Below, piece by piece: positions 9,064 through 54,727 of a DNA stretch of 64,000 bases. The stretch is from assembly GCA_964654695.1 (NCBI GenBank), contig CAZZKJ010000004.1, positions 30,043 to 94,042 on the forward strand. The letters are read 5' to 3'. Under the pieces are notes generated by a model. That model was not told where the DNA came from, ran no database searches, and worked only from the letters and a program-made list of their open reading frames with translations. The position numbers and the translations under genes are program-made. The stretch comes from an uncultured bacterium (lineage in GTDB: Bacteria; Krumholzibacteriota; Krumholzibacteriia; WVZY01). The number at the start of each line of letters is the position of its first letter. The stretch's first letter is position 1.

Positions 9064-9076
9064 GAGTTCCTCCTTA

Positions 9077-9469: not shown

Positions 9470-9549
9470 GATGCATTCCTTTTTTCGGTTCCTTCATCTT
9501 CGGCCTCTGCCGTATGGAACTTTAGGTTTTTCTATCTCCAGACGCAGAT

Positions 9550-11906: not shown

Positions 11907-11913
11907 ATAATCC

Positions 11914-13632: not shown

Positions 13633-14123
13633 TGTACTATTGCCTCTATTTCTCTTTCGGCAGTTCCTATCCTTGCCTTAACGTTAATTCTCTTTTGCCC
13701 GGATGACAGAGGGACGCCTTCAGCGCTCGAATCGGATAAAAAAACGGTAAAATATCCCGGCCCGATAGTCCTGCCGGAACCAGGCAATCCCGTCCAGGAC
13801 GGGTTCGAAGCAAGCTTGGACAGCGAAAAATCCAATCCTGCTTCGCAGAGATAGAGACATTTGACGATCTCGATATGATTCCGGGCAACATCGAGATCTT
13901 CAGAAACGGTAATAGACACCATGAGTCCAACTGCGGACAAAACCAGAAGCGCCATCAGGGCCACAACGAGGGCGGAGCCCCGGCGGTTCTTGATGGCGTT
14001 GCACCTCCCGCTGGAGCTGGAGCGCCCGGCGGAACAAACACGATCACACGGCATCCGGTGGTGAATTACGCCCGGGGGATTATTTATCCGTTTTATTTTC
14101 TGTTTATACGCCGTCATATTCAT
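13629..14123 (-). CDS. GspK-like minor pseudopilin; start codon uncertain
   Basis: RRGSALVVALMALLVLSAVGLMV resembles the GspK 'RGVALI' N-terminus, which lacks the G|F cleavage motif. Shorter than canonical GspK. Confidence 0.4.
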   Translation of the reverse strand: MNMTAYKQKIKRINNPPGVIHHRMPCDRVCSAGRSSSSGRCNAIKNRRGSALVVALMALLVLSAVGLMVSITVSEDLDVARNHIEIVKCLYLCEAGLDFSLSKLASNPSWTGLPGSGRTIGPGYFTVFLSDSSAEGVPLSSGQKRINVKARIGTAEREIEAIVQ

Positions 14124-14665
14124 ATATTCCGCAGATAGGTGCCCGTTTGCAGCGCTACCGTTATACCGCCATTGACGAGCCGTAAAAATATGGTGATTCT
14201 GAAAATATCAGTAGCGCCGGGACTAACGATGGGAACGGCCAAATTGCCGTCGGACTGGTAATAACCGAAAGCCATGGAATCGACTCCGCTGGCCAGAGTC
14301 TGAATGACTGCTCCGCGTCGAAAAGTGACATCCCCCCCTGAAATTCCGGAAAATTCTATCGTGTACAGGCTGTCATTAACTCCATAGAAAGAAAAAGTGT
14401 CGATATCCGCACCGACAACATCGCTGGAAGATCGGACTTGCCGAGTCTCGCGCACGATTCTAAGAAGCGCCATCCGGCCCTCCTGTGTCAATTCCCTGCG
14501 CGCATCAACAGTGTCGAACATATGGTTGCCTTCACTGAACACGGCGGCAAATATTCCTGATATGAGACCCAGGATCAAAACCACCAAAACCAGTTCCACC
14601 AGCGTAAAACCGGCCGAATGGTCACAATTACTCATATCTTGTTCGTTTTTCATTGGGCCACCCAT
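14120..14665 (-). CDS. Minor pseudopilin (GspJ-like)
   Basis: Prepilin motif SAG|FTLVELVLVVLILGLISGIF. Confidence 0.65.
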   Translation of the reverse strand: MGGPMKNEQDMSNCDHSAGFTLVELVLVVLILGLISGIFAAVFSEGNHMFDTVDARRELTQEGRMALLRIVRETRQVRSSSDVVGADIDTFSFYGVNDSLYTIEFSGISGGDVTFRRGAVIQTLASGVDSMAFGYYQSDGNLAVPIVSPGATDIFRITIFLRLVNGGITVALQTGTYLRNI

Positions 14666-15063
14666 GTCGACAGCACGACATCATCGATCGCACTGTTAGA
14701 AACCGTAACATCCACCAGCTTGAAATTAACCCCTTGATACAGAGACTCGGCCGCAACCGTGACGGAAATACTGAAACCTGAAAACTCCGGCGGATTGCTG
14801 ATGTCGGGATAATTTGAATTTATTATGTAGTCGTACCCTCTTCCCTGCGCGGCGGCATCCGCAATGATTGTTTCCATTTTTTCCTGCGCCAGAAAAACCG
14901 CTTCGGTGGCTATTACCGGTTTAACGGAATTATAAGCCGCGTTCGAGAACATCGACATCAAGGGCGCAATAGCCACCGTGGCAATCATGACAACGAGAAT
15001 GAGCTCAAGCAGCGTAAAACCCTCATCCCCGAATCCAGTACGCTTTTCATTTGATTCGATCAA
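14650..15063 (-). CDS. Minor pseudopilin (GspI-like)
   Basis: DEG|FTLLELILVVMIATVAI prepilin motif; 137 aa. Confidence 0.65.
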   Translation of the reverse strand: MIESNEKRTGFGDEGFTLLELILVVMIATVAIAPLMSMFSNAAYNSVKPVIATEAVFLAQEKMETIIADAAAQGRGYDYIINSNYPDISNPPEFSGFSISVTVAAESLYQGVNFKLVDVTVSNSAIDDVVLSTWVAQ

Positions 15064-15563
15064 AACTCCACTTTCCCGGTCAGAGGATATATTTTCAACG
15101 TGTCTACATTGCCGCTGCAGCTCAGCACCACAAACCCCATCGCCGACAATTCCGATCCCGATGAACCGCGGGGAATTCCGAGGGCATCGAATTCCACCGA
15201 AACTCCACTATCAAATTCAGCGCTTTCGATATCCATCCCTTCCAGAGTCCTTCGCATCGGACGGCCGGGTTTAAGCAAATCATCAGCGGGGGTCGATACA
15301 TTTCCCCTGTATACCGTGTAGCTTTCAGCACCCGGATTAAAATACACTCCATACCTCACGCGCTCCGCAATGGCTCGGGATTGTGCAAATTTGATATCCG
15401 CTGCAAGCGTTTTGGCCGCGCTCCTGAGATCGATGGCGTAGTAATCGTTGAATTTTGGAATTGCGACCAGCGAAATCACCCCTATGATTGCGATTACCAT
15501 CACCATTTCCATCAAAGTGAATCCATTTTTACTTGAGCCCATATCACGCTCCGGTAACAACAT
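15060..15563 (-). CDS. Minor pseudopilin (GspH-like)
   Basis: KNG|FTLMEMVMVIAIIGVISLVAIP prepilin motif; 167 aa. Confidence 0.65.
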   Translation of the reverse strand: MLLPERDMGSSKNGFTLMEMVMVIAIIGVISLVAIPKFNDYYAIDLRSAAKTLAADIKFAQSRAIAERVRYGVYFNPGAESYTVYRGNVSTPADDLLKPGRPMRRTLEGMDIESAEFDSGVSVEFDALGIPRGSSGSELSAMGFVVLSCSGNVDTLKIYPLTGKVEF

Positions 15564-16767
15564 GCATCAAGTTCCACATCGGCAAGAAGACCGCCAGGGC
15601 GATAAATAGTACACTCACACCGAGTATGACGAGAAGGATAGGCTCCAAAACCGTTGTTAGATTTTTTATTTTGTAATCCAATTGCCGGTCGTAGAAATCG
15701 GATATTTTATTCAACATGATGCTGAGATCCCCTGTCTGTTCTCCGACTTCCAGCATTTTTACTACCGGCGGGGGAAATACTCCTCCGGAACGAATGGGGT
15801 CCGTCAATCCCAGCCCTTTTTTGATGCCGTCCTGCATCTTCCGAATTTCTTCGCTTATTATCACGTTTTCTATTGTCTGCAGGACCAGGTCGAGCGCGCG
15901 CACGATCGGAAGACCGCTTTCGAGAAGCGCGCCCAGAACGCGAGAGAAACGCGACATCAGTGTTTTAACGATTAGCTCGCCGAAAATGGGAATATTAAGC
16001 ATGGCATTATCGAACATTTTTCTGCCCCGGTACGTTCGCCGGAAGGCGCGCAGAGCGAAAAAACCCAAAATTGAACCTATGAGCATATGGGGCCAATAAC
16101 CGCTGAAAAAATCGCTTAACTTGAGCATCACTACGGTGGGAAGCGGAAGCGCAGCGTCGCGCGACGAGAAAAGAGCCTTGAACCTGGGAAACACGAACTT
16201 GATTATGACAATGAACGCCATCAGCAACTCTCCGATCACGAGGGATGGATAGAAAGTCGCCGATCTAATTCTCGACTGGGTTTCCGCTTCGTATTCCAGC
16301 AGGTAACCCATCCTGTCCAGCATTTCATCGAGCACGCCGCCTTCCTCGCCGGCATTCAGAAGATTTACATATAGATTTGAAAAAAGATTAGGGTGTTTTT
16401 GTATCGCCTGGGCGAGCGTGCTCCCGCCTTCTATATCCTTCACCACCTGCTCGAGTACGCTTTTTACGGTTTCATTCTCGGCTTGATCCGCCAAAGCCCT
16501 TAAGCTGCCCGTCAGCGATATACCGGCGTTGAGCAGCGACTGTAGCTGGCGGGTGAACAGAATTTTGTCGTCATGCTTGATCTTTTTCTTGTTTCGCTTC
16601 CGCAGAATATCCATCCATTTGGGCGCATTCCTGGTTTCATTCAGCGAAACGGGGTAGAGCCCCTGCTTTTCCAATGTTTTCAGGGTTTCGGGTTCATCGA
16701 CCGAAATGATTTCTCCGCTAACCAGCTTTCCCTCGCGCGTACGGGCTTTGTAGGTATATGCAGGCAA
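15544..16767 (-). CDS. gspF: Type II secretion / T4P inner-membrane platform protein (GspF/PilC)
   Basis: 407 aa, duplicated GspF domain, 3 TM; characteristic repeats such as LLNAGISL and LLESGLPIVRALD. Confidence 0.85.
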   Translation of the reverse strand: MPAYTYKARTREGKLVSGEIISVDEPETLKTLEKQGLYPVSLNETRNAPKWMDILRKRNKKKIKHDDKILFTRQLQSLLNAGISLTGSLRALADQAENETVKSVLEQVVKDIEGGSTLAQAIQKHPNLFSNLYVNLLNAGEEGGVLDEMLDRMGYLLEYEAETQSRIRSATFYPSLVIGELLMAFIVIIKFVFPRFKALFSSRDAALPLPTVVMLKLSDFFSGYWPHMLIGSILGFFALRAFRRTYRGRKMFDNAMLNIPIFGELIVKTLMSRFSRVLGALLESGLPIVRALDLVLQTIENVIISEEIRKMQDGIKKGLGLTDPIRSGGVFPPPVVKMLEVGEQTGDLSIMLNKISDFYDRQLDYKIKNLTTVLEPILLVILGVSVLFIALAVFLPMWNLMHVVTGA

Positions 16768-16791
16768 GGCTTCACTCCCATTCGATGATTT

Positions 16792-18507
16792 TTAGCCGGG
16801 GGTTTTCGCAAATAAATCGTCGCTTTGGATTTCGTTCTTATCGCTAAATTCGGGTTTCGTGACCCGGATCACTTCTTCCAACGTTGTCACTCCGTCCAGG
16901 GCCTTGGCAAAAGCATCTTCGCGGAGCGAACGCATTCCGTTTTCTTTCGCCAGTTTTTTTATGTGTTCGAATGAAGCACAGTCGAGCACGGCCTTTTTTA
17001 TCTCTTCGTTGACTTCCAGTATTTCAAAGACCGCCGCCCTGCCCTTGTAACCCACGTTTTCACACTGCAGGCAGCCCTTGCCGTGGAATATTTGCTGGTC
17101 TCCGTTCAGGTTTATGTTCATCGATTTAAGAGTTTTTGCAGGCAGATTGTAAGGTTCTTTGCAGCGAGGGCATATCTTTCGCACCAGGCGCTGGGCCATG
17201 ACCCCGACTAGAGAAGATGTAATAAGAAACGGTTCGACGCCCATGTCCAAGAGCCTGGCGATTGCGCCCACGGCATCGTTGGTATGGAGAGTGGAGAATA
17301 CAAGATGGCCCGTCAGGGCGGACCGGATCGCGATCTCCGCGCTCTTGCGGTCCCTGATTTCTCCGACCATGATTACATCCGGGTCCTGGCGCACGAGCGA
17401 ACGCAGCCCCTTGGCGAATGTCAGGCCTATCTCCTCGTTGACCTGGGTCTGCCTTATATAAGGAAGCATGTATTCAACGGGATCTTCCAGCGTTGCTATA
17501 TCCCGATCCAGCGTATTGATCTCCTGCAGGGCCGCATAGAGGGTTGAAGTCTTGCCGCTCCCCGTCGGGCCCGTAACCAGCACCATTCCGTTTGGCTTGA
17601 GAATCATGGATCGGAGCAAATCCGAATCCCTGGGACTCAGCCCCAGATCGCTGAGACTCAAAGTAGAGTTCTTTTTGTCCAGCACCCTGATTACCACATT
17701 CTCGCCGTGCACGGTTGGAAAAGTAGATATCCTGAGGTCCAACAGGGCGTCTTCTAAATCCATACGACACCGGCCGTCCTGGGGAAGTCTTTTTTCCGCT
17801 ATATCCAGATCGGAAAGCACTTTGATTCGAGAAACCACTGCAGGATGAATGGCTTTCGGCTGCACTGAAACTTCCTTGAGTATTCCATCTACACGGAATC
17901 GAATCCTCATATCATCGCTGTCCGGTTCAATGTGTATATCGCTTGCCTTTTCTTCGGCGGCTTGAGTAATTATGCTATCGACGAATTTGATAATCTTATT
18001 CTCGGTTGCGCCGTCGCTTAGAGCATCCTTTTTAATCCGGGCATCAAACTGTTCCAACGCTCCCGTGCCCCCATAGAACTGCTTGAGCGCCAGGCTGACA
18101 TCATCCTTTGAGCAAACGCAGGGATCGATATCCATGCCGGTGACGGCTCCGAGTTCATCAACGGCAATCACGTTCAGGGGATCTTCCATGGCAACCGTGA
18201 GGGTGTCGCGTATAAGAAAAAGTGGAATCACCCTGTATCTGCGCGCCAGCTTTTCAGGCACAAGTTTTATGATGGCTGCATCCATGGAATAATCGGACAG
18301 GCTGACTTTGGGTATGCTGAGTTCATCTTCGAAGAACGCGAGGATATCAGATTCTTTTACCATTCCAAGCTTTTGAAAAACCTCGCGAAGATAAAGGCCG
18401 GTTTTGCGTTGTTCCTCAAGTGCGGAACGGAGCTGATCCTGCGTTATCAAACCTTTTTCAACCAGGTATTGGCCCATCGGCTTCTTGCCTTTTCTTACCA
18501 GAGGCAT
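16792..18507 (-). CDS. gspE: Type II secretion ATPase (GspE/PilB family) with N-terminal GSPII_E_N domain
   Basis: Walker A GPTGSGKTSTLYA, Asp/His boxes, tetra-Cys zinc motif CPRC...C..C. Confidence 0.9.
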   Translation of the reverse strand: MPLVRKGKKPMGQYLVEKGLITQDQLRSALEEQRKTGLYLREVFQKLGMVKESDILAFFEDELSIPKVSLSDYSMDAAIIKLVPEKLARRYRVIPLFLIRDTLTVAMEDPLNVIAVDELGAVTGMDIDPCVCSKDDVSLALKQFYGGTGALEQFDARIKKDALSDGATENKIIKFVDSIITQAAEEKASDIHIEPDSDDMRIRFRVDGILKEVSVQPKAIHPAVVSRIKVLSDLDIAEKRLPQDGRCRMDLEDALLDLRISTFPTVHGENVVIRVLDKKNSTLSLSDLGLSPRDSDLLRSMILKPNGMVLVTGPTGSGKTSTLYAALQEINTLDRDIATLEDPVEYMLPYIRQTQVNEEIGLTFAKGLRSLVRQDPDVIMVGEIRDRKSAEIAIRSALTGHLVFSTLHTNDAVGAIARLLDMGVEPFLITSSLVGVMAQRLVRKICPRCKEPYNLPAKTLKSMNINLNGDQQIFHGKGCLQCENVGYKGRAAVFEILEVNEEIKKAVLDCASFEHIKKLAKENGMRSLREDAFAKALDGVTTLEEVIRVTKPEFSDKNEIQSDDLFAKTPG

Positions 18508-23220: not shown

Positions 23221-24048
23221 ATGAATGACATCAGAAACGAAGTTAAGAAAAAATACGGAGATATCGCCAAACAGGATTCTTCGTCGTCCTGCTCGCCCGC
23301 AAGCGGCTGCTGCGGAGCGGGCCCCGCGGAAGTAATCAGCAAAAGAATTGGATACACTGATAAAGAATTGAAGGCAGTCCCCGATGGCGCCAATCTCGGT
23401 CTCGGGTGCGGCAATCCTTTGGCTCTGGCATCCATCAAGGAGGGCGATACGATCGTTGATCTGGGATCGGGGGCCGGTTTCGACTGTTTTCTTGCAGCAA
23501 AGAAAACCGGACCCGAAGGCAGGGTGATCGGGCTGGACATGACGCCCGAAATGATCGAAAAAGCCCGAAGTAACGCAAAAAAGAGCGGTTACGATAATGT
23601 GGAATTCAAGCTCGGCGAAATAGAGAAGATGCCCCTGCCCGATGGAACGGCTGATTTAATCATATCCAACTGCGTGATTAATCTGTCCCCGGATAAAGCG
23701 GCCGTGTTCGCGGAGACGTTCCGGGTGCTAAAACCCGGCGGACACATGATGATATCGGATATAGTCCTGCTCAAACCGCTTCCGGATTTTATAAGGGAAA
23801 ACGTTTACGCTTATGTCGGCTGTGTCGCCGGAGCGCTTCTCAAGGATGAATACACCAGGTTCATCGAAAAAGCGGGGTTCGAGGACATCGAGATTCTCGA
23901 TGAAAGCGTCTATGACCTCAAATGGCTGCTTGAAGATCCGGTGATGGCGTCGATTGCTAAAGCGAGCAGCCTGTCGGTCGATCAGCTCGAAAGCGTTCAG
24001 AAGTCGGTCGTTAGTTTGAAGGTGAGCGCGGTAAAACCGGCCAATTAG
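23221..24048 (+). CDS. arsM: Arsenite S-adenosylmethionine methyltransferase (ArsM/AS3MT family)
   Basis: Near-collinear with bacterial ArsM: CCGAG Cys pair, LGCGNP, VDLGSGAGFD SAM motif, ISNCVINL, YVGCVAGA third As-binding Cys. Confidence 0.8.
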   Translation: MNDIRNEVKKKYGDIAKQDSSSSCSPASGCCGAGPAEVISKRIGYTDKELKAVPDGANLGLGCGNPLALASIKEGDTIVDLGSGAGFDCFLAAKKTGPEGRVIGLDMTPEMIEKARSNAKKSGYDNVEFKLGEIEKMPLPDGTADLIISNCVINLSPDKAAVFAETFRVLKPGGHMMISDIVLLKPLPDFIRENVYAYVGCVAGALLKDEYTRFIEKAGFEDIEILDESVYDLKWLLEDPVMASIAKASSLSVDQLESVQKSVVSLKVSAVKPAN

Positions 24049-27667: not shown

Positions 27668-29542
27668 ATGATCAAGATGCGCTTCATAGCGGTTTCTCAA
27701 ATTCTGCTGATTTCAATTATCGTCTCGGTCTGGATTCCTGTGACTGTTCCCGCGATATCTATGGAGTCTTTCTCCGAAGATCCCGTTACGATCAAAACAT
27801 ATGCTTCGCTCTCTTCCCTTCCGCAGGGAGGGAGCATGGAACTCGCGGTGGAACTCGTAATAGACAGTGGGTGGCACATTAATGCGAATAAGGTGAATGA
27901 TCCTTACATGATACCCACGTCCATAATCATCGAATCCGTTCCGGGACTAACTGTTGAAAAAGTGGTCTATCCTCGCGGCATTGAAAAAACCCTGTCCTTT
28001 TCGGAATCCCCTTTGCCTCTTTACAGCCGCAGGGCCCTGATCGGTATTCTCATAAAGGCCGCTCCCAGCGTTTCCATCGGCGAAGCCGTATTTAACGCAG
28101 CCGTCACCTATCAGGCGTGCGACGACAAACGCTGCCTTGCACCGATCGAGAAGAAAATCGATATACGCGTTACAGTATCATCACCCAAGGAGGCGGTCGA
28201 TGCCCGCTTTCCGGAGATTTTTGCCTCGTTGAACCTGCGGGAAGATGCTGGGAATTCCGGTGCCGGTTCATCCGGGGAGAATATATCTCAAAACGGGCAG
28301 GCTCGAAGGCTTCAAAACCTGATGAAAACCCGGGGACTGCCTTTTGTCCTTTTGATCATATTCATGGGCGGGCTGGCCCTCGATCTCACCCCATGCGTGT
28401 ATCCCGTCATTCCCATCACGGTCAGTTATTTCGGAGGCCAAAGCGAAGGAAGATCGGCAGGAACATTCTTACTGGCCTCTCTGTACGTGCTGGGTATGGC
28501 CGCGATGTATTCGTCTCTGGGATTAGCCGCCGCTCTGACGGGCAGCATGTTCGGAACGGCTTTACAGAACATGTACGTTCTTTTCGGCGTCGCCCTGATC
28601 ATGGTCCTGCTCGCTTTGTCGATGTTCGGACTCTATGAGCTCAGGATACCCGCGAGCATAAGTGCCATAGCCGGAACTTCCAAACAAGGCCCCATCGGCG
28701 CTTTTCTGATGGGCCTGACCGTAGGCATCGTGGCCGCTCCCTGCATCGGCCCTTTCGTGCTGGGCCTGCTGACGTTCGTCGGCGAAACCGGCAACCCCGC
28801 TCTCGGATTTTTGCTCTTTTTCACACTGGCTTTGGGGCTCGGCCTGCCATTCATGGTACTTGCGGTTTTGTCGGGCAGCATCTCCCGCCTGCCGAGATCG
28901 GGAGAATGGATGGAGTGGGTCCGAAAAATGTTCGGAGTAGTTTTGCTGGCCATGGCGGTATATTTCCTGGAATCAGTTCTGGGTTCCGTAACATTCTATC
29001 TGCTCCTCGGCCTTCTTTTGGCAACCAGTGGAATCATCCTGGGATTCGTTTTAAAATCATCCACGCAGGGATTTTTCTTCAATCTTATCCGAAAACTAAC
29101 GGGCCTGGCGGTTCTCCTCTTTGGGCTTTACCTGTTATTCGCTCCCGGACATATTTTCAACCGCAATGAAACCGGAGGCATAGCCTGGCAGGAATTCAAC
29201 CGCGATCTATTGACAAAGGCAGCAGCGGGTAAAAAACCTGTGATGATCGATTTCTTCGCAGATTGGTGCCTGCCGTGCAAGGAGTTGGACCACAGGACGT
29301 TCTCGCGTTCCAAGGTTATAGATGCTTCCAGGAAAATCTTAGCCTTGAAAGCCGATCTTACCCGGTCGGCATCTCCGGAAGTAATCGCAATTAAAAAATT
29401 CTACAAGATAAAGGGTGTTCCAACCGTCGTTTTCATAGACGGGCAGGGGAAAGAAAGACAGGATCTTCGTGTATTCGGATTTGTAGGCGCAGATGATTTC
29501 ACCGGCCGTTTGGAACGGCTCAAAGGACCTGCATCGAAATGA
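27668..29542 (+). CDS. dsbD: Thiol:disulfide interchange protein DsbD (N-terminal DsbD-alpha-like domain, CcdA-type TM core, C-terminal thioredoxin domain)
   Basis: TM-core Cys pair (LTPCVYP ... AAPCIGP), C-terminal DFFADWCLPCK CxxC. Confidence 0.8.
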   Translation: MIKMRFIAVSQILLISIIVSVWIPVTVPAISMESFSEDPVTIKTYASLSSLPQGGSMELAVELVIDSGWHINANKVNDPYMIPTSIIIESVPGLTVEKVVYPRGIEKTLSFSESPLPLYSRRALIGILIKAAPSVSIGEAVFNAAVTYQACDDKRCLAPIEKKIDIRVTVSSPKEAVDARFPEIFASLNLREDAGNSGAGSSGENISQNGQARRLQNLMKTRGLPFVLLIIFMGGLALDLTPCVYPVIPITVSYFGGQSEGRSAGTFLLASLYVLGMAAMYSSLGLAAALTGSMFGTALQNMYVLFGVALIMVLLALSMFGLYELRIPASISAIAGTSKQGPIGAFLMGLTVGIVAAPCIGPFVLGLLTFVGETGNPALGFLLFFTLALGLGLPFMVLAVLSGSISRLPRSGEWMEWVRKMFGVVLLAMAVYFLESVLGSVTFYLLLGLLLATSGIILGFVLKSSTQGFFFNLIRKLTGLAVLLFGLYLLFAPGHIFNRNETGGIAWQEFNRDLLTKAAAGKKPVMIDFFADWCLPCKELDHRTFSRSKVIDASRKILALKADLTRSASPEVIAIKKFYKIKGVPTVVFIDGQGKERQDLRVFGFVGADDFTGRLERLKGPASK

Positions 29543-29625
29543 TCGTGAAAATCCCTATATAAAGACGGCGTTGCTCCGGAAAAAATCTTAATGACACGGT
29601 CTGAGAGGACTTTTATAATAAACTC

Positions 29626-30489
29626 ATGAAACTTGTAAGTTTCGGCAAAGCGGGTGCAGAAAGGGCCGGCGTTATGAGCGGCGGTTCTATCATTGATATC
29701 AAGGCGGCAGACAACGCCCTTCCGGATAATATCAGAGATATTCTCGAAAAAGATATGCTCGGTGAAGTTCGCAAACTTCTCGATGCCGCAGGCTCCGGCA
29801 GCATACCCCCAGGAGTTGCACGCCGGGCGAACGGGACACGCCTCGGCCCTCCGGTGACAAATCCAACGAAGATAATATGCCTGGGTTTGAATTACATCGA
29901 CCACGCCCGCGAACAAGGCAAGGAAGTTCCGGATTGGCCCCTTCTTTTTGCAAAAGCTCCCAGCTGCCTTATCGGCGACAAGGATCCGATACCAACCCCG
30001 CCGGGAGTCGCGCAAATGGACCACGAAGTCGAACTGGCATTCGTCATTGGCAAAAAAACCAGGAATGTTGCGCAGAAGGATGCTCTATCGTGCATTGCCG
30101 GGTACGGTATATTCATGGACATAAGCGCGCGCGATGTGCAGTTCAGAGAAAAACAATGGTTCCGGGGGAAAAGCTTTGACGGTTTCGGACCGTTTGGTCC
30201 TTGTCTGACTACATCTGATGAAATCGCCGATCCGCACAATCTTCCGATTTCACTTAAGGTGAACGGCAAAACCATGCAGGACAGTAATACCGGCTTAATG
30301 CGGTTCAAGGTGGATTACCTGGTTCATTATCTTTCACAATGCATGACTCTCATGCCCGGCGACATAGTCGCCACGGGAACTCCGTCCGGAGTCGGGGTAT
30401 TCGCATCACCGCAGCGTTTCCTGCAAAAGGGCGATGTTCTCGAAGCCCGGATTCAATCTTTGGGTTCATTGACCAATCCCGTTTCCTGA
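29626..30489 (+). CDS. Fumarylacetoacetate hydrolase (FAH) family protein (2-keto-4-pentenoate hydratase / HpaG-like)
   Basis: KIICLGLNYIDHA, HEVELAFVIGK metal-binding blocks. Confidence 0.8.
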   Translation: MKLVSFGKAGAERAGVMSGGSIIDIKAADNALPDNIRDILEKDMLGEVRKLLDAAGSGSIPPGVARRANGTRLGPPVTNPTKIICLGLNYIDHAREQGKEVPDWPLLFAKAPSCLIGDKDPIPTPPGVAQMDHEVELAFVIGKKTRNVAQKDALSCIAGYGIFMDISARDVQFREKQWFRGKSFDGFGPFGPCLTTSDEIADPHNLPISLKVNGKTMQDSNTGLMRFKVDYLVHYLSQCMTLMPGDIVATGTPSGVGVFASPQRFLQKGDVLEARIQSLGSLTNPVS

Positions 30490-30534
30490 ATAGTAACCGG
30501 AAAATACCAATAGCAATGCATATCGCGGCAGCCA

Positions 30535-31764
30535 GTGAAACAAAAAGCGGATAAAGACAAGAGATTCAATCTGCTGGTCATTTCACCCTGGGCGGACATA
30601 TGGTCGCTGGGCGAAGGCGCGGGTGTTTCAGATGATTACTATTTTATTGAAAAAGCCGTTCGCCGGGGCTTATCCGTGCATTTTCTGCGTCCGCGAGGGG
30701 ATTCCACAAACGGGACTCAGGCCTCAAATCACAGTGTTCATTATTATCCCAATTTTTTCCGCGCTACCCGAAAACTGCCTGCATTTCTCAAACGCATCAT
30801 ATGGCCGGTGCTTTTCAATATCATTGTAATTCCCGCATCAGTGATTATCGCCCGAAGAATCAGGCCTGGTTTTATTCTCGGACACTCTCATTATACGCCC
30901 CCTGCCGCCTTAATCGCCGCACGCGCAGTCGGAGCCGGATGCGGCATCAAACTTTTCGGTGTTATGGACATGGTTCACACAGAATGGAATTATTTTAAAT
31001 ACCTGTACAAGAACATTGAGCAGGTACTAGCCATGAAAATCCCGCAGGATACATGGATTATTCTCGATGACGGCACTTGCGGCCGCCGGGCCGCCCTGCG
31101 CAGGGGAATACCCGGCCATAAAATCCATTTCCTCCCGAACGGCATCAATGTGGAATGGGCGGATGCACAAACCGACCGCCGAGTTGCCAGAAAAAAACTA
31201 TCAATAAAAGATGATGCATGCGCCGTGCTCTTTTTGGCCAGACTGGTGCCGTCTAAGAGACCGGAAACTGTTGTCCGCGCCATTCCTGAAATCCTCCGCA
31301 ATTCGACCTGCGAAGTACAGTTTATTTTTGCCGGTGACGGCCCCCTGCGCTCATCCTGTGCTGCGCTGGCCAAACAACTGGGAATAGACGATTCGATCCG
31401 GTTTCTCGGAACAATTCCGCACCGTGAAGTGCCCGATCTCGCATCCGCCTGCGATATATTCGTTGCTACGAGCAATCTGACAAACATGGCAATTCCAACC
31501 TGCGAAGCCATGCTTTGTGGGCTCCCGGTAGTAGCTTTTGATGTGGGCGATACATCTAAGACCGTGATTCATGAGCGGAACGGAATCCTTGTTCAAGACG
31601 GCGATACCGCCGCTTTGTCCAGCGGCATCTTGAAGCTCATAGAATTTCCGGAGAAGAGGAAACAATACGGCAGAGAGGCCAAAGCATTCGGACGTGAACA
31701 CTTCACGGGATGGGACGCAAGAACGGATATGGAAATGGATATTATCGAGAAGCAGGTTGAATGA
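30535..31764 (+). CDS. GT4 family glycosyltransferase
   Basis: EX7E motif region CEAMLCGLPVVAFDVGDTSKTVIHERNGILV. Confidence 0.75.
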   Translation: MKQKADKDKRFNLLVISPWADIWSLGEGAGVSDDYYFIEKAVRRGLSVHFLRPRGDSTNGTQASNHSVHYYPNFFRATRKLPAFLKRIIWPVLFNIIVIPASVIIARRIRPGFILGHSHYTPPAALIAARAVGAGCGIKLFGVMDMVHTEWNYFKYLYKNIEQVLAMKIPQDTWIILDDGTCGRRAALRRGIPGHKIHFLPNGINVEWADAQTDRRVARKKLSIKDDACAVLFLARLVPSKRPETVVRAIPEILRNSTCEVQFIFAGDGPLRSSCAALAKQLGIDDSIRFLGTIPHREVPDLASACDIFVATSNLTNMAIPTCEAMLCGLPVVAFDVGDTSKTVIHERNGILVQDGDTAALSSGILKLIEFPEKRKQYGREAKAFGREHFTGWDARTDMEMDIIEKQVE

Positions 31765-31765
31765 A

Positions 31766-32734
31766 TTAATGCTCCCTCAATAGCTTATCTAGTGCTCTGG
31801 CGAGCTCTCTTCCCCTTAAAGACTTATAGCGAATATTGCCTTTGCGGTCCAGAAGGAATGTTGCCGGAATGGATCGAACACGATACTGATGAGCTATGCT
31901 GTTTTTCCATCCTTCTCCGTCAAAATACTGCGGCCAATCAATCCCGTTTTCCTTGATATATTTTTCAACGGATTCTCGTTTGCTGTCCAGCGAAACCCCG
32001 ACGATCTCGAAACCCCTGGCGCTGTGCTTTTTGTAAAGCTCTATTACATTAGGCATTTCTTTTCTGCATGGACCACACCACGTAGCCCAAAAATCGATCA
32101 ACACGACTTTGCCCTTTAGCTTCTTGAGTGACAGGGCTTTACCCTTCATATCCTTGACTTTGAACGGTATGGGAGGATTCCCTACCGTCAGTTTCTTGAG
32201 AACTTCCAGGTCCTCAAGGTTCGTTTTTGCTTCGTTTGTCAGGCGCACATCGATATCGGAATATTCATTAATAAACTTATTATAATATTTTTTGGCCAGA
32301 TCGAACTGTTCTGAGGTTACATAATTCTTCGCAATAAAATAATTAGCATATCCCAGTCTCTTGCGTTTGGTCGCGGCGGCACCCTTTATGAAATCTTCCA
32401 AATATTTTATAGCTTTATCATTCTTGTTTATATTTGTATTTAACATACCAAGCTGATATTTAACATCCAAAGATTCATCGGCCTCGGGATACTCTTCAAC
32501 GAACCGCAGCATTCTTTCTTCAACCTTATCGAAAACCTCCAGAATCTTTTCCATCGAAGCTCCACGCGTTACGCTGTGTTCCAAAACTTTTAACTCAGAC
32601 ATAAGTTTTTCATACGCATCCTTGGAACTCAATTCACTTTCGGATGCTGAGAAAGAACTCATAACTGTCAGGAACGCCATTATCAACAAAGGCAATGCGG
32701 TTAAACCGCGTTTACTGGCGAAGAATGTTCTCAT
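31766..32734 (-). CDS. TlpA-like periplasmic thiol-disulfide oxidoreductase (redoxin) with N-terminal TPR-like helical domain
   Basis: Signal peptide; WATWCGPCRKEMP CxxC thioredoxin motif. Confidence 0.75.
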   Translation of the reverse strand: MRTFFASKRGLTALPLLIMAFLTVMSSFSASESELSSKDAYEKLMSELKVLEHSVTRGASMEKILEVFDKVEERMLRFVEEYPEADESLDVKYQLGMLNTNINKNDKAIKYLEDFIKGAAATKRKRLGYANYFIAKNYVTSEQFDLAKKYYNKFINEYSDIDVRLTNEAKTNLEDLEVLKKLTVGNPPIPFKVKDMKGKALSLKKLKGKVVLIDFWATWCGPCRKEMPNVIELYKKHSARGFEIVGVSLDSKRESVEKYIKENGIDWPQYFDGEGWKNSIAHQYRVRSIPATFLLDRKGNIRYKSLRGRELARALDKLLREH

Positions 32735-32761
32735 TATTCCATCCTTTTTTTCGGGAGCAGG

Positions 32762-33781
32762 CTATAGAGTTCTTGCAATCAATCGAATCTTCAATGTCGG
32801 TTCTTGAGGATCATCGGTCTTGATAATCATTTCATCCGAATAATTCCTCCTGGAGCTATCCGGCGTGAAATTTACCCGAACGACGTATTTTCTGCCGGAT
32901 TCAATAGGATTGATCGACGCCGAATAGTAATCCCTGCTGAAATCGATGTGTTTTATCTTGAACTCGCCTTTTATTTTGCTTACCGTAATGGTTTTCTGAT
33001 AGCCTTTCGGAGTTTGAGACTTTCCCCCGACTTGAACCCTGCCGAAATTGATGATTGAAGGCTGAGCTTTTATCATCGCGCGCGTCGTAACATTGACTTG
33101 AATGACTTTCTCAGGGCTGTGTTTGCTGTTGGTGTGCACCTTGATAGATCCCCACGTATTGACCGCGGGAAGCTTCGGATTCTTCCAGATACGGATTTTG
33201 AACGAATTAGGAGTGTTACCTTTGTCTACTTTGTATGTAATCTTCTCATCTATGTTGGATTCCAGTTTCGTAATGGCGAAGTTTTCGCCGGACTCGTTAG
33301 ATATAATGTCTATTTCCTTTTCGACCGGTTCTCCAAACATGCCGGCTAGATATACGCGGTCGGCAGGTTGAACTTCCACATAGTGCCTGATCGTTCCCGA
33401 TAGAGTAAGAGTCATCCTCGGGTGTTTGGGATCATTCGATATTACGGTTGCACTTTTATTGAAGGTGCCGTGCACCCTTTTTCCATCGATTTCCAGAGTC
33501 ACTTTTCCCTCCTGACCAGGAGGAATGACCTTATCAAACTTGGCCACTGTGCAGCCTCACCCAGGTTTTACACGGTTGATAACCAGGTCGGCTTTGCCCT
33601 TATTGCGGATCATGAATTCATGCTTGAACGTTTCTATTTCGAAAACCGTTCCGAAATCATGTCTTAACTTTGATATAAAAATCTCTGGTTGATTGCCCTC
33701 GGTTTTCGCTGCTTGTACCGGGAAAAAAGCAAACAGTATGAGCAAAATAGCAAAGTATCCTGCCGTCATATTTTTTCTCAT
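32762..33781 (-). CDS. DUF1573 domain protein (secreted, two tandem Ig-like DUF1573 units) with an in-frame TGA at 33557..33559 at the position of the first Cys of the conserved SCGCT motif. Candidate selenoprotein; alternatively a nonsense-disrupted gene.
   Basis: The ORF track splits the gene in two (33557..33883 and 32762..33547), but the junction reads INRVKPG-[TGA]-GCTVAKFDKVIPPG, against the DUF1573 consensus ..ASCGCTVP.W....PG. Start reassigned to the ATG at 33781 (MRKNMTAGYFAILLILFAFFPVQA signal peptide), which has an AAGGAG RBS 7 nt upstream. TGA is used as an ordinary stop in neighbouring genes (porB, dsbD, the FAH gene). Confidence 0.5.
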
Positions 33782-33917
33782 AAAACGTCTCCTTATCCTC
33801 GAACAAATTCCGACATTGGACATGCTGAATCTCCCATGAATTATACATTTGTCAAATATAAAGTTCCAGGAATTTTTGCTCAAGTCGGTGAATATGGCGC
33901 CTTGGAAACAGGGCGAT

Positions 33918-35465
33918 TCATTCCTTAAGCAGGAAATCCGCGCTTTGTTCCGCCAGGAGGGCAGAGCAGTCTATACTTCTGATTATACTCCTCCTGAACT
34001 TTCGGCTTTCGGCGCACTTTTCCGTAAGATCAACAACGGACCCGTCGCCACCGGCGGGACCACCGGGGGTGATCAATTTTACGCAAGGACGATGGAGAAA
34101 CCGAGTATCATGATTGGGCTTTACTACTATCCCGGTCTCTTTGGTATCCAATTCGACCCCCGTACCTACAGGATAAAGCCCCATAGTTCTTATAAATACT
34201 TTCGCCAGGAATGGATCAAATATTTCCCCGCTTTTCTGAAATATGAACCTCATTACCTTGTCCTGCCTGAGAGGAATCGGCCTGTAGACACGAGGAGAAG
34301 TCATGGCATCATAATAATCGGAAATGGTTACAATTCTGGAGAACAACCTAAGACGCCATGCGGTGTTTTTGCGCGGATAGCCGTTAAGGTCGTAATGAAC
34401 ATGGTGCTGAAGAGAAACAAACATGGCATCGGCCATTTCCCTCAAAGCTTTTACCTTGGAGAGCTCTTTTATTCCGAAAAATGTGTGATATTTCATCAAT
34501 TCCCAGTCTTTTCCCTTTAGTTCATTAGGATTGTTGATTATGGATTCAGGAATATAGACTTTCCCAATATCATGAAACAGGGCCGCCAGCCCCAAACGGG
34601 CTATATCGCCTTTGCACAACCTCAGTTTATCGCCCACGGCCATGGAAAGAATGCAGACGTTAACGGAATGGGCAAACGTGTATTCGTCGAAGTTCTTTAT
34701 ACTGGCGAGTCCCAGCAGAATCGATTCATCGGTTTGCATAATATCAACCATCTGCTGTGTCAGCCTTTTGGCTTTTCTGACTTTTATCACGTGGCGCTCT
34801 TCGATCGCCTGAACAACCTCCTTCATCAAAGCCACGGTCCTGAAAAATATCCGGTTGCTTTCTATTTTTATATTCTTTCTTTCCTGGTTGTAATCCCTCA
34901 AGCGCCTTTCCATTGCAACATATTGAGATATGCTTATATGTGGCAGTTCAAGTGCGGCGAGTTTTTTCTCCAAACGATCATATGGATAATCTCCGTCTTC
35001 AAGTTCATAGAATGTTTTAAGGAAATTCGCTATTTCATCGGGCATAACACCTTCATTGAACTCGATGCTTTCAACTTCTTTTTTCTTCATCTCATCCATG
35101 AGAAATTGGAAAGCGCTGAAATACTGGGAATCGGCCTTGATGCGTACATCATTTATGTTTATGTATTCCGCAGCCAGCCGGACGGCGGCACGGCTGCCTT
35201 CAGCGAAATAGCTCCCCAGGTTATCCATTAGCTCGGACAGCACGCGTTTGACGGCATTATTGTCGAGCTTATAGATCTGCACCATTTTGCTTGCGGAAAA
35301 AAGCGAATGAATCAGCGCCAATCCCCTGCGGTTCAGTGATATCAATTCATCGCGTTCGGCGGTTTCTTCACCCGCAGCGGCCTTTTTCGCCTTGTCCGGC
35401 GCATCACCGGCAGAGTCCTCGATTAAATCCTCTGTTAAAGTTCTATATTCATTATCATCAGACAT
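33918..35465 (-). CDS. HD-GYP domain c-di-GMP phosphodiesterase-like protein
   Basis: AALFHDIGK (HD motif) and HHVHYDLNGYPR (GYP motif). Confidence 0.75.
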   Translation of the reverse strand: MSDDNEYRTLTEDLIEDSAGDAPDKAKKAAAGEETAERDELISLNRRGLALIHSLFSASKMVQIYKLDNNAVKRVLSELMDNLGSYFAEGSRAAVRLAAEYININDVRIKADSQYFSAFQFLMDEMKKKEVESIEFNEGVMPDEIANFLKTFYELEDGDYPYDRLEKKLAALELPHISISQYVAMERRLRDYNQERKNIKIESNRIFFRTVALMKEVVQAIEERHVIKVRKAKRLTQQMVDIMQTDESILLGLASIKNFDEYTFAHSVNVCILSMAVGDKLRLCKGDIARLGLAALFHDIGKVYIPESIINNPNELKGKDWELMKYHTFFGIKELSKVKALREMADAMFVSLQHHVHYDLNGYPRKNTAWRLRLFSRIVTISDYYDAMTSPRVYRPIPLRQDKVMRFIFQKSGEIFDPFLAKVFIRTMGLYPVGTGVELDTKETGIVVKPNHDTRFLHRPCVKLITPGGPAGGDGSVVDLTEKCAESRKFRRSIIRSIDCSALLAEQSADFLLKE

Positions 35466-35493
35466 TGCTCTGCTCCAGTATCGGCTTCACTCT

Positions 35494-37323
35494 TCAACCT
35501 TTCCTTAAAGAAACAAGCGCCTTTTTCGCGCGGGTGCTTATCAAGCTGCTGGAATCCAGCGATAATTCTTCTAAAAGAGGAAGCGCCCCCGGAATATTGA
35601 TATTCTCCAATGCCCGGACGGCCAAAAGTTTGTTCTCTCTGTTTTTTCCGCCCTGCATAAACCCTCTTTTCTGAATCATCTCTTTGAGCTTATCCAGAGT
35701 TTCCTCGTCTGCACTGTAACCCAGTATTCTAAATGTCAATTCTTTCTCATCCTGATCTTTTTTTGTGAATTCCTTTGTAAAAGCAATTGAATGCAGAAAC
35801 TTCTTGATAATTATGCTTTTCTTTCCTTCCAGGGAGTGAAAGGCTTTCAATCTTATTTTTTTCTCATCATCCTTCGCCAATTTGAGCAGCAGCCCTATCG
35901 CATGCTCGTTATCGATATTTCCGAGATATTTTACAAGCTCTTCCCTGACACGGATGTCGGGATAAAAAATCAGCTCCCGTATTCTCTGAGGAATATTTGA
36001 TAGGCCTGATTTATTAACCATGTAGACAGCGGCCTCGGCCGCCTCCCACTTCTCTATCAGCATGTTCTCGATTACTTCTTCTACGGAGTCGCCGGAAACG
36101 TCAACCAGGCAGTCGCATAACTCTCGGCGCAGGCGGCTGTTCGATGCGGTCTGAATTATCCTGACGAGCACAGGAACGGCGGAGTCGCCCGCCATCCTGA
36201 AATAAGCCAGCACATCTTTCGCGGCGGCATTCCTTTGATCCAATTGTTTGGATACTGCTGTAAGAAGTTCCTCTGTTGTAAGCTTTTTTTCCATTTGTAA
36301 GCATAATTCCCGAACGCTCGAGTTGGATTCCGTGTCGGCAGTGAAGTTCATGAAAATTTCGAGCACGGAGCAGAGCCTCGCCGGCTCCGGCAAATTAATG
36401 AAATAATCCGCGAACTTTTCAATAATATTGGCAATATCTCGTAATACTGATTGGTTGTTGGAGAGAAGGGAGAATTCCAACATTGTCCGCAGCAGGCCCA
36501 TCAAGCTGTCTTTTCGTTTTTCTCTCAGCAGTTCCTCGCCGCACAGTTTCAATTCATGCGATCCAATCTTAAAAGTGGTTTGCAGAAGTTCTTCAAACTC
36601 TTCTTCCATCAACTCCTGATTTCCATTCGGATTGATGCTCGCATGCAAATTTCTGAAATAATACTCCAGCGAATCCTCAGCTTCGTTGGATTCAACGATT
36701 ACCCTTCCCTTATCCTTGAAAATTGGAATCAACTCGGCATGATCAGCGCTGTCTAATGATGATTGACCGGATCCCAGCGTATTTTTGCCGTCGCCGAATT
36801 CGCCCGACAGGTATTCATCAAGCACTCTGTACGTTATATAATCGAAATCAGCTTTCCAAAGACGGGTGACGATATCCTCGTCGGATGAGGATCTGCGCAT
36901 ATCGTGAATCAGCAAATCTATGAACGTATCCAGTTCCTTGAATGAAACACCGTCTCGAAATGTAACTTCACCGATTCCATCCTTGTAAAGAGTGAACGCA
37001 ATACTCTCATCGCGCCTCGTATTTTCATACACTTTCTCGCCGTCCCATTCGAGGCGGAATTGATTGACGGCCAGAACCAGTTCCTGCTGTTCCTGGAAAC
37101 ATTCCCGCAAGCTGTTTTCGAGCTCCCTGGCAAAATTAGCCAGTATGGGATTATTTGCGGTATAGAGCTTTTTGCCGGATAAATACTTGGAAAATGCTTT
37201 TATGAAATGCTTTACCTTGAGGGGGGCATCCCTGCGCTCATCGGAAAGACCATCGTGGCAACTCTGCTGATTAGAAGCACGTACATGCTCCTTGGGCCCA
37301 GATTCTTTTAGCTTTTGGTCCAT
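35494..37323 (-). CDS. HEAT-repeat (PBS-lyase-like) protein of unknown function, co-oriented immediately upstream of the HD-GYP gene
   Basis: C-terminal third contains several HEAT-like repeats (e.g. AIGLLLKLAKDDEKKIRLKAFHSL; ALPLLEELSLDSSSLISTRAKKAL). Confidence 0.45.
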   Translation of the reverse strand: MDQKLKESGPKEHVRASNQQSCHDGLSDERRDAPLKVKHFIKAFSKYLSGKKLYTANNPILANFARELENSLRECFQEQQELVLAVNQFRLEWDGEKVYENTRRDESIAFTLYKDGIGEVTFRDGVSFKELDTFIDLLIHDMRRSSSDEDIVTRLWKADFDYITYRVLDEYLSGEFGDGKNTLGSGQSSLDSADHAELIPIFKDKGRVIVESNEAEDSLEYYFRNLHASINPNGNQELMEEEFEELLQTTFKIGSHELKLCGEELLREKRKDSLMGLLRTMLEFSLLSNNQSVLRDIANIIEKFADYFINLPEPARLCSVLEIFMNFTADTESNSSVRELCLQMEKKLTTEELLTAVSKQLDQRNAAAKDVLAYFRMAGDSAVPVLVRIIQTASNSRLRRELCDCLVDVSGDSVEEVIENMLIEKWEAAEAAVYMVNKSGLSNIPQRIRELIFYPDIRVREELVKYLGNIDNEHAIGLLLKLAKDDEKKIRLKAFHSLEGKKSIIIKKFLHSIAFTKEFTKKDQDEKELTFRILGYSADEETLDKLKEMIQKRGFMQGGKNRENKLLAVRALENINIPGALPLLEELSLDSSSLISTRAKKALVSLRKG

Positions 37324-53792: not shown

Positions 53793-54178
53793 AACGCAGG
53801 AGTCCCGCTAAAGAGTTCAAAACAACAGCAGCAGTATCGGGACATCCTTATGGAAGTCCGCGGTCATAAACATAACTCAAACTCCGATACTCCCGGCTTT
53901 ATCGGATGATGATTCGCGGGCAAGAGCAGTTTTGATCAGATCCCTTATCGCTTCGGAACGGCTGCCGCAACCTTTTTATAACATTCTTCTTCCGATTTCG
54001 GCGGAGGAGAGTGTAACACAGATAATATTTTCGTGCTAGTTGATTTCCGGTGTTTCAGGGCAAAATTGAGATGGCAGGTCCGGATACGATCTGGTATTGT
54101 TATTGATCTCGAACGTATGCTTCAGCTATGATGCCGTCATCGAGTCCGAACCCGCAAACCGAACGCGATTGGGAAGAA

Positions 54179-54727
54179 ATGGCCTGGATTGAAGTTATAA
54201 AAGAAGACGACGCTCGGGGTTATCTTAAAACCCTGTATAAGAAATTCGGCAATCCTTTCGAGGGCGTTGACAACATCCTCAAGATACATAGTCTCAATCC
54301 TGAATCCCTTAAATACCATTATGATCTCTACAAACATCTTTCTTCGGGCCGGTCCGGTCTCAGCAGGATGCAAAGGGAAATGATAGCCGTCGTTGTGTCC
54401 GGCGCAAACAACTGCCATTACTGAGTGACCCACCACGCGAAGAGTCTCTTCCGATTAACCAAGAATAAGAACCTCGTCGAATCAATCCAGAGCGACTTCA
54501 GAAACGCTGATATCGGACAGAAAGATACGGTCATGCTGGAATACGCGGAAAAACTCGCCGTCTCTCCATGGAAAGCAGAGAAAAGTGACTGTGATCAATT
54601 GAGAAATGCCGGGTTCAAGGATGCGGATATTCTCGACATCGTTCAAGTGGCGGCCTATTTTTCATTCGTGAACCGCATTGCCAGCGGTCTCGGGGTTGAA
54701 TTAGAAAAGTATTGGGAAGAAAAGTGA
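54179..54727 (+). CDS. AhpD / carboxymuconolactone-decarboxylase family 'peroxidase-related' protein (TIGR01926-like) with in-frame TGA (54422..54424) at the second position of the C-x-x-C motif. Selenoprotein (C-x-x-U).
   Basis: The ORF track splits the gene at the TGA: ...VVSGANNCHY-[TGA]-VTHHAKSLF... = CxxU...H, where the AhpD family has CxxC...H. Start reassigned to the ATG at 54179 (MAWIEVIKEDDARGYL...), as homologues of this family begin MxWI. AhpD-like proteins are a known bacterial selenoprotein family. Confidence 0.7.
54436..54453 (+). promoter_or_regulatory. Candidate bacterial SECIS stem-loop immediately downstream of the UGA of the AhpD-like gene
   Basis: With U of UGA = 1: stem C16-G17/(C bulged at 17-18)/GAAGA : UCUUC closing a GUC loop with G23-U24. 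This reproduces the E. coli fdhF SECIS geometry (bulge at ~17, conserved G23 U24). Confidence 0.5.

Follow-up and report, generated by a model that had tools for sequence, protein, structure and literature searches.

A predicted selenocysteine codon in an OS_HP2/DUF1573 gene of an uncultured Krumholzibacteriota bacterium

The OS_HP2 gene and its in-frame TGA

The 64-kb stretch of DNA analyzed here, referred to as the window, comes from contig CAZZKJ010000004.1 of an uncultured bacterium of the Krumholzibacteriota and contains, on its minus strand, a gene of the OS_HP2 family whose reading frame holds an internal TGA. The two listed open reading frames (ORFs) at 33557..33883 and 32762..33547 share one common frame, and the TGA at 33559..33557 is the sole interruption between the ATG at 33781 and the TAG at 32764..32762. 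The locus is read here as one gene for a secreted protein of approximately 35 kDa that belongs to the known OS_HP2/DUF1573 selenoprotein family, a reading to which we assign a probability of roughly 0.85, and the in-frame TGA almost certainly encodes selenocysteine (Sec, U) in this DUF1573 protein. The features of the gene are as follows.

32762..33781, minus strand: OS_HP2/DUF1573 selenoprotein gene, with the ATG at 33781, the stop TAG at 32764..32762, and 339 codons
33789..33794, minus strand: Shine-Dalgarno-like AAGGAG, 7 nucleotides (nt) 5' of the ATG, as read from the sequence
33707..33781, minus strand: predicted Sec-type (export pathway) signal peptide MRKNM-TAGYFAILLILFAFF-PVQA/AK, as read from the sequence
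33392..33673, minus strand: DUF1573 immunoglobulin-like (Ig-like) domain, residues 37-130, which holds the U-G-C motif (PF07610 match)
33557..33559, minus strand: in-frame TGA, predicted selenocysteine codon 75; TGA or TGC/TGT in relatives
33551..33553, minus strand: TGC for Cys77, the resolving Cys of the U-G-C motif, as read from the sequence and its translation

The read-through translation around codon 75 is ...KADLVINRVKPG-[TGA]-GCTVAKFDKVIPPGQEG... (given as ...NKGKADLVINRVKPG-[TGA]-GCTVAKFDKVIPPGQEGKV... in the full account of the same stretch), and only the codons GGC TGC ACA lie between the TGA and the GTG that was taken as the start by the ORF finder. With Cys placed at codon 75, the protein matches PF07610 (DUF1573) over residues 37-130 with E = 8.1e-26 and 90.4 bits against a cut-off of 26.1; the domain thus straddles the TGA. 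Sec75 and Cys77 are the only Sec or Cys residues of the translated protein, and the TG of the Cys77 codon is invariant in the alignment of the 60 nt from the UGA. By eye, the N-terminus of the translation displays a positive n-region, a hydrophobic core, and a V-Q-A site, and the protein is predicted to be exported by this Sec-type signal peptide. An earlier note on this DNA had placed the TGA at the first Cys of the C-G-C motif of DUF1573, and the frame, the translation, and the ORF pair all agree with this placement.

The family itself is already known. With Cys substituted for Sec, residues 38-131 score 110.9 bits against the curated cut-off of 100 of the NCBIfam model NF041425, 'OS_HP2 family (seleno)protein'. 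The name denotes 'Olavius symbiont hypothetical protein 2', a new selenoprotein family that was described by Zhang and Gladyshev in 2007 and first found in deltaproteobacterial symbionts of Olavius (PMC1976440). The table of the 2008 Global Ocean Sampling survey lists 'OS_HP2, pfam07610, UxC' with 354 Cys homologues (PMC2398784), and reviews from 2022 (PMC9312934) and 2026 (PMC13188914) include 'DUF1573 domain-containing protein, pfam07610 / PF07610, UGC' among the known prokaryotic selenoproteins. The earlier note had proposed a candidate novel selenoprotein in a family not established as containing selenoproteins. Since the curated model and these four papers already describe the family, the claim of novelty is refuted and the statement about DUF1573 was wrong; the proposal of a selenoprotein, on the other hand, is strongly supported by the TGA/Cys column and by the TGA-specific hairpin with its compensatory changes, both described below.

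The family, domain, and motif are all already on record, and the gene is an ordinary member of a known family; its correct recognition is not a discovery, because the family has been catalogued. It shares with the other members the Pfam domain, the UGC with Sec at the first Cys of CGC, a stem-loop after the UGA, and abundant Cys homologues, and nothing essential differs. The copy in the window groups with uncultured Chitinivibrionia-, Latescibacterota-, and Krumholzibacteriia-type sequences, whereas OS_HP2 was first known from the deltaproteobacterial symbionts of Olavius. Furthermore, a two-helix structure is described here, whereas the 2007 paper figures no selenocysteine insertion sequence (SECIS) for OS_HP2 (PMC1976440). 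The additions made by the present analysis are incremental, namely, a two-helix SECIS with a spacing slightly out of range, a clade-specific synteny with TlpA/DsbD genes, TGA forms across several candidate phyla, and a widespread truncated annotation.

The TGA codon among homologues

A protein search at E < 1e-10 gave a set of 218 homologous proteins; the DNA of 78 related loci was taken from species-representative genomes, and the codon was read at the aligned column. An alignment of homologues at this column, together with conserved RNA structure after the UGA across orthologues, had been named beforehand in the earlier note as the evidence to look for. The column holds TGA in 53 gene copies, including the one in the window, and TGC or TGT in 47, and the 52 further TGA copies lie in independent assemblies. 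The motif reads ...VKPG-U-GCT... here and ...P[GS]-C-GC[TS]... in the 47 Cys copies. The TGA copies come from metagenome-assembled genomes (MAGs) labelled Latescibacterota, Krumholzibacteriia/-ota, Chitinivibrionia, Thermodesulfobacteriota/Deltaproteobacteria/Desulfobacterales, Calditrichota, and KSB1; the Acidobacteriota/Thermoanaerobaculia copies have Cys in all cases.

The homologues fall into two length classes, i.e., full-length proteins of 331-358 amino acids (aa) with P[GS]-C-G-C-T and fragments of approximately 257-265 aa. The fragments cover 76-77% of the query and start with V/M-A-[KQST]-[FY]-D-K-V-I-P-P-G-Q-E-G, which corresponds to the first GTG or ATG past the motif, and gene calls that begin at V/M right after UGCT account for approximately 70% of the top 120 database homologues. 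The full-length Cys homologues are collinear with 91-100% of the read-through protein, and conservation at the protein level extends 5' of the TGA in 31 loci, as found with tblastn. The Sec forms P0001, P0014, P0016, and P0022, along with approximately 80 others, are annotated as 257-265 aa fragments from a GTG or ATG four codons past the TGA, and such entries include 'hypothetical protein' records of the complete Latescibacterota MAG chromosomes CP070677.1 and CP070631.1. The public entries for most TGA forms are fragments of this kind and could be re-annotated.

In a rough neighbour-joining tree without support values, the Sec and Cys forms, tandem paralogues included, are interleaved, which suggests that OS_HP2 genes may have switched between Sec and Cys repeatedly; the same tree places the window copy with L001 (uncultured bacterium) and L005 (Chitinivibrionia). 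Two or three OS_HP2 paralogues often stand in tandem, with Cys and Sec forms in one array, e.g., Cys-Sec-Cys (L012 3157/4234/5314, L009 150/1182/2220, and L014 3069/4159/5240), and the window has a single copy, which is of the Sec form.

RNA structure downstream of the UGA

Positions in the RNA are counted from the U of the UGA as +1, and the 60 nt from the UGA were aligned for the 53 TGA forms; the alignment is gap-free, as expected for a coding sequence. Two helices are found in this stretch.

33525..33547, minus strand: helix H2 (+13..+35), GUGGCC paired with GGUCAU around an 11-nt loop, from RNAalifold and compensatory changes
33506..33525, minus strand: helix H3 (+35..+54), SECIS-like hairpin UUCCUCCU-GGUC-AGGAGGGA, from folding, covariation, and comparison of the TGA and Cys forms

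Across the TGA forms, RNAalifold pairs +13..+18 (GUGGCC) with +30..+35 (GGUCAU) in H2 and +36..+42 with +47..+53 in H3, the latter being (C/U)CCUCCU-GGUC-AGGAGG(G), a stretch that also codes for P-P-G-Q-E-G. The two hairpins that had been pointed out before, CCUCCU-GGUC-AGGAGG at +37..+52 and GUGGCC...GGUCAU at +13..+35, both exist, and both are kept in the TGA forms. In the window copy, H3 comprises 8 bp and folds alone at -11.0 kcal/mol, with equally stable folds in 4 of 200 shuffles, while the values for H2 alone and for H2 plus H3 are -5.2 and -15.4 kcal/mol, respectively. Over all TGA forms, 93.5% of the cells of H2 and H3 are paired; none of 500 column shuffles reached that value or the covariation score, and the slid-register controls gave 35-60%. 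For H2 taken separately, 98% of cells are paired.

Changes on both sides of a pair are present in both helices. In H2, they concern the pairs 15:33 (G-C to A-U in L033 and L035) and 18:30 (L021). In H3, five sequences have G-C in place of U-A at 39:50, and four have C-G in place of U-A at 42:47. Additionally, the alignment of L012 displays GUG changed to GUA together with K-V changed to R-L, and the helix re-forms with its register shifted by one. The comparison with the Cys forms separates the two classes clearly, since at least six of the seven H3 pairs are present in 92% of TGA forms vs 6% of Cys forms, and at least five of the six H2 pairs in 96% vs 45%. The Cys forms have the higher G+C content (64% vs 55%), yet the helices are rarer in them.

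Third codon positions past the UGA carry high information in the TGA forms alone, and there only in codons 4-5, 9-10, and 15-16, which make up both arms of H2 and the 3' arm of H3; further downstream the information is lower in the TGA forms than in the Cys forms. Since third positions are conserved only at the helix arms, the constraint acts on the RNA and does not reflect a general lack of divergence. This constraint accounts for the P-P-G-Q-E-G shared by the TGA forms, where the Cys forms have A-P-G-K-T-G and similar sequences. With one coding sequence present in 53 Sec and 47 Cys forms, the family lends itself to a clean natural test of the rules for bacterial SECIS elements: the RNA structure, and with it the peptide that it imposes, is confined to forms with the TGA, and the loop lies just past the accepted distance.

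Two Cys forms, L014 5240 and L037 1072, retain an H3-like hairpin, e.g., CCCUCCCGGCAAGGAGGG, encoding PPGKEG, and such a hairpin in a few Cys-form paralogues may be the trace of a recent Sec-to-Cys conversion. A further helix, H1 (+4..+18, GGCUGC/GUGGCC), was rejected as the SECIS: it competes with H2 for GUGGCC, it would sit inside the ribosome with the UGA in the A site, and 80% of its pairs are present in the Cys forms, because the G-C-T-V-A coding sequence imposes them.

Comparison with known SECIS elements

The bacterial SECIS consensus employed by bSECISearch specifies a loop of 3-9 nt, an upper stem of 4-16 bp, a UGA-to-loop distance of 16-37 nt, a G in one of the first two loop positions that is usually followed by G or U, and a minimum free energy of -7.5 kcal/mol or lower, and some genuine selenoprotein genes fall outside this model (PMC13188914). 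H3 fits the consensus in its 4-nt loop, its stem of 7-8 bp, the GG at the start of the loop, and its energy of -11.0 kcal/mol. The relatives have a 4- or 6-nt loop on 6-7 bp; the loop is GGUC in 31 of the 53 Sec forms and GGGU, GGGC, GGGA, GGAG, or GGCG in the rest, and the mean folding energy of H3 over the Sec forms is -10.7 kcal/mol. In every one of the 53, the distance from the UGA to the loop is 39 nt.

For comparison, the SECIS of Escherichia coli fdhF, whose sequence was verified against 5,419 E. coli genomes (100% identical inside fdhF), folds with an apical loop GGUC that starts 18 nt after the UGA. Analogous to this element, H3 is a hairpin within the coding sequence shortly past the UGA and has the apical loop GGUC; the judgment that neither hairpin is fdhF-like was thus too cautious, given that the loop tetranucleotide is the same. 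H3 differs from the fdhF element in the position of its loop (39 nt after the UGA instead of 18), in the extra conserved helix (+13..+35) between the UGA and the hairpin, and in having no bulged U. When the 23 nt of H2 are discounted, 39 - 23 = 16 nt remain, which led to the idea that H2 might fold as a compact spacer, such that the over-long distance of 39 nt would act like approximately 16 nt. Across the window, no Rfam family reached its gathering threshold, and a permissive Rfam scan of 33440..33620 gave meaningless weak matches only, with nothing like a bacterial SECIS family.

Selenocysteine decoding by the organism

TGA is used as an ordinary stop codon in the window, where it ends approximately 33 of approximately 59 long ORFs, in accordance with what had been said of the adjacent genes, and a reassigned UGA code is thus excluded. 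The window contains another gene that is interrupted by an in-frame TGA, at the distance of approximately 21 kb that had been given for a second selenoprotein candidate.

54179..54727, plus strand: AhpD-like gene with an in-frame TGA at 54422..54424 (TIGR01926 match)

With Cys substituted, this gene scores 155 bits against a cut-off of 81.8 for TIGR01926, 'peroxidase-related enzyme'. Its TGA stands within ...NNCHY-[TGA]-VTHH..., a CxxU motif, 20.9 kb from the OS_HP2 gene, and AhpD-like CxxU proteins are a known selenoprotein type. As the TGA of this second gene is likewise aligned with Cys, the organism probably decodes UGA as Sec. The AhpD-like protein is unrelated to OS_HP2 in fold and motif, and its gene is of the cytoplasmic kind; it serves here as supporting context only. 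A hairpin GAAGA-GUC-UCUUC was seen by eye at approximately +18..+30 after its UGA and differs from the minimum-free-energy fold; the minus-strand ORF at 54137..54436, which overlaps the AhpD-like gene, is probably spurious.

Gene neighbourhood

The genes that bear on the function of the OS_HP2 protein lie on its 3' side.

31766..32734, minus strand: tetratricopeptide repeat (TPR) plus TlpA/ResA-like periplasmic thioredoxin with WCGPC, 27 nt 3' of OS_HP2 (domain matches)
27668..29542, plus strand: DsbD, membrane protein-disulfide reductase, three genes away (NF001419, 332.2 bits vs a cut-off of 330)

The co-oriented TlpA-like CxxC thioredoxin that had been reported next to the gene is confirmed, 27 nt downstream on the same strand. 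It contains AhpC-TSA, Thioredoxin_8, Redoxin, and TPR domains, the WCGPC motif, and a visibly hydrophobic N-terminus. Its scores against the ResA and TlpA equivalog-level models of NCBIfam are all below the cut-offs, and it is therefore called TlpA-like and not TlpA itself. No terminator-like site was found in the 27-nt gap, and the two genes are probably co-transcribed. The order after OS_HP2 (27668..32734) is TPR-TlpA-like thioredoxin, GT4 glycosyltransferase, FAH-family hydrolase, and DsbD, and this order of TPR-TlpA, GT4, FAH, and DsbD is kept in Latescibacterota- and Krumholzibacteriia-type loci but is absent from the other phyla inspected.

A TPR-TlpA-like gene directly 3' of the OS_HP2 gene or genes is found in 43 of the 78 loci, and the linkage to the thioredoxin holds for Latescibacterota-, Krumholzibacteriia-, and Chitinivibrionia-type loci. 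At least nine related loci share the synteny with DsbD, a lower bound because the flanks were limited to 4 kb, and an upstream HD-domain protein is syntenic in 12. The G+C content is 43.6% in 32001..36000, which holds the OS_HP2 and HD-domain genes, vs approximately 47-51% in most of the window; the preserved synteny with relatives argues against a recent transfer of this low-G+C block.

Proposed mechanism

SelB carrying Sec-tRNA(Sec) would bind H3 and deliver Sec at the UGA, possibly with the aid of H2 in the spacer role mentioned above, and the protein would be exported via its signal peptide. The AlphaFold model of the Cys homologue P0003 (48% identical), which has a predicted local distance difference test (pLDDT) score of 92.7, contains three tandem beta-sandwich domains, with the CGC in a loop that joins two beta-strands of domain 1. 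By analogy, the loop with Sec75 and Cys77 would belong to the first Ig-like domain of three. In the PDB, Foldseek matched the P0003 model to nothing but generic Ig/ASH-like tandem arrays (HYDIN-type ciliary proteins and cadherins, among others), and a sequence-profile search of the PDB gave no match for the DUF1573 protein. A literature search revealed no functional study of DUF1573.

An intramolecular Se-S bond is the obvious chemistry for the protein, since Sec75 and Cys77 are its only Sec or Cys residues. CxC disulfides are strained and comparatively oxidizing. The pair Sec75/Cys77 may thus cycle between a selenol/thiol form and a strained Se-S bond, the TPR-TlpA-like thioredoxin would re-reduce it, and DsbD would feed the thioredoxin. 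From gene order and motif, the protein is most likely a periplasmic U-G-C redox protein that is kept reduced by the TlpA-like thioredoxin with electrons from DsbD. This arrangement resembles the pathways from DsbD to TlpA/ResA/CcmG, in which a secreted WCGPC thioredoxin adjoins its presumed client and DsbD is nearby. However, an Ig-like U-G-C protein takes the place of apocytochrome c, ScoI, or CoxB as the client, the thioredoxin has a TPR region at its N-terminus, and the interaction is read from gene order alone.

We consider it possible, though less likely than not, that OS_HP2 uses a distinct bipartite SECIS composed of the H2 spacer and the GGUC hairpin, in which the spacer would bring the hairpin within range of SelB at the ribosome, and that the protein is a client or partner of a dedicated TPR-TlpA/DsbD pathway, the latter idea being limited to Latescibacterota-, Krumholzibacteriia-, and Chitinivibrionia-type bacteria. 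Neither the bipartite OS_HP2 SECIS nor the role as a TPR-TlpA/DsbD client is described in the literature that was searched. The conserved pairing with the TPR-TlpA-like thioredoxin provides a concrete starting point for the role of DUF1573 CGC/UGC proteins.

Several observations count against the assignment of a selenoprotein in this redox pathway. Concerning the RNA, the H3 spacing of 39 nt (+4..+42) is 2 nt over the 16-37 nt of the bSECISearch consensus, and when the 60 nt past the UGA are folded as a single sequence, their stability is not significantly above that of shuffles (z = -1.09). As H2 is almost invariant, the support for it consists of only three or four compensatory events plus conservation at synonymous sites. 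Concerning decoding, ARAGORN found no tRNA, and hence no tRNA-Sec, within the window, no SelA, SelB, or SelD was found in domain scans of 30 of its larger ORFs, and the searched literature does not demonstrate selenium incorporation for any OS_HP2 member. Concerning function, the fold and sequence searches (Foldseek against the PDB and the PDB profile search) yielded no functional analogue. ORF inspection, without a domain scan, of deltaproteobacterial, Acidobacteriota, Calditrichota, and KSB1 loci revealed no conserved thioredoxin partner, and the TlpA link is thus clade-specific. Finally, both the function of H2 as a spacer and the redox cycle as a whole are inferred.

Alternative explanations

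A metal- or metalloid-binding role for the U-G-C is a serious alternative to the redox role, albeit one that we consider less likely. The motif would then be a ligand for a metal or metalloid (Cu, Hg, As, or the like), carried by an Ig-like scaffold in the periplasm, and not a catalytic redox pair, and the TlpA-like protein would only keep the U-G-C reduced for metal binding, much as TlpA acts on ScoI/CoxB. In favour of a metal ligand, proteins of the TlpA type take part in the assembly of copper centres, and Foldseek against the PDB gave no known catalytic relatives of the Ig-like fold. Arsenite methyltransferase and cation-efflux genes are also present in the window, at non-adjacent positions, and metal-binding selenoprotein families are known, i.e., MerP/MerT-like, YHS-domain, and P-type ATPase proteins (PMC2398784, PMC9312934, PMC13188914). 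However, no metal-handling gene is conserved beside the OS_HP2 gene, and no other conserved residue (His, Met, or Cys) was identified as a potential ligand.

The reading of the locus as a single selenoprotein gene also has to be weighed against two genes, a short N-terminal peptide ending at the TGA and a 261-aa protein starting at GTG 33547, which we hold to be very improbable. Gene callers do give exactly this 261-aa product for P0001, and for many relatives; however, it would have neither a signal peptide nor half of domain 1, the DUF1573 domain spans the TGA, and the full-length Cys homologues are collinear across it. Moreover, no ribosome-binding site precedes the GTG, where there is instead the conserved GGCUGCACAGUG coding stretch.

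It is equally improbable that the UGA is read through other than as Sec, whether by a reassigned code (UGA = Trp or Gly) or by near-cognate insertion of Cys or Trp. Sec insertion is so far predicted only, and no Sec machinery was found in the window, both of which leave room for such a reading; however, over half of the window's long ORFs terminate at TGA, the residue aligned with the codon is Cys and neither Trp nor Gly, the SECIS-like hairpin with its G-rich apical loop co-occurs with the TGA, and the AhpD-like gene provides a second Cys-aligned TGA.

The weakest explanation, which the earlier note had kept as possible, is a pseudogene, a recent or strain-specific nonsense mutant, or a sequencing error in which the Cys codon TGC/TGT merely reads TGA, in line with the missing Sec machinery in the window and the database annotation of the gene only as a 261-aa fragment; we regard it as excluded for practical purposes, because the TGA recurs at the identical codon in 53 copies from independent assemblies of several phyla, both gene halves remain conserved as protein, and the specific RNA structure is common to the TGA forms and absent from the Cys forms.

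Other features of the window

Adjacent genes on the minus strand encode topoisomerase VI subunits A (Spo11/Toprim domains; 54792..55883) and B (transducer plus GHKL ATPase; 55929..57662). Topoisomerase VI, an enzyme of archaeal/eukaryotic type, is uncommon among bacteria. A type IV pilus or type II secretion-like cluster at approximately 8686..18507, also on the minus strand, includes genes for a PilM-like protein and a T2SSE ATPase (452 bits), together with several small ORFs whose N-termini are of the prepilin type, GFTL(I/L/M)E. The arsenite methyltransferase gene arsM at 23221..24048, on the plus strand, matches NF008823 with 357 bits and is a Cys form with no in-frame TGA; related ArsM fusions are known selenoproteins.

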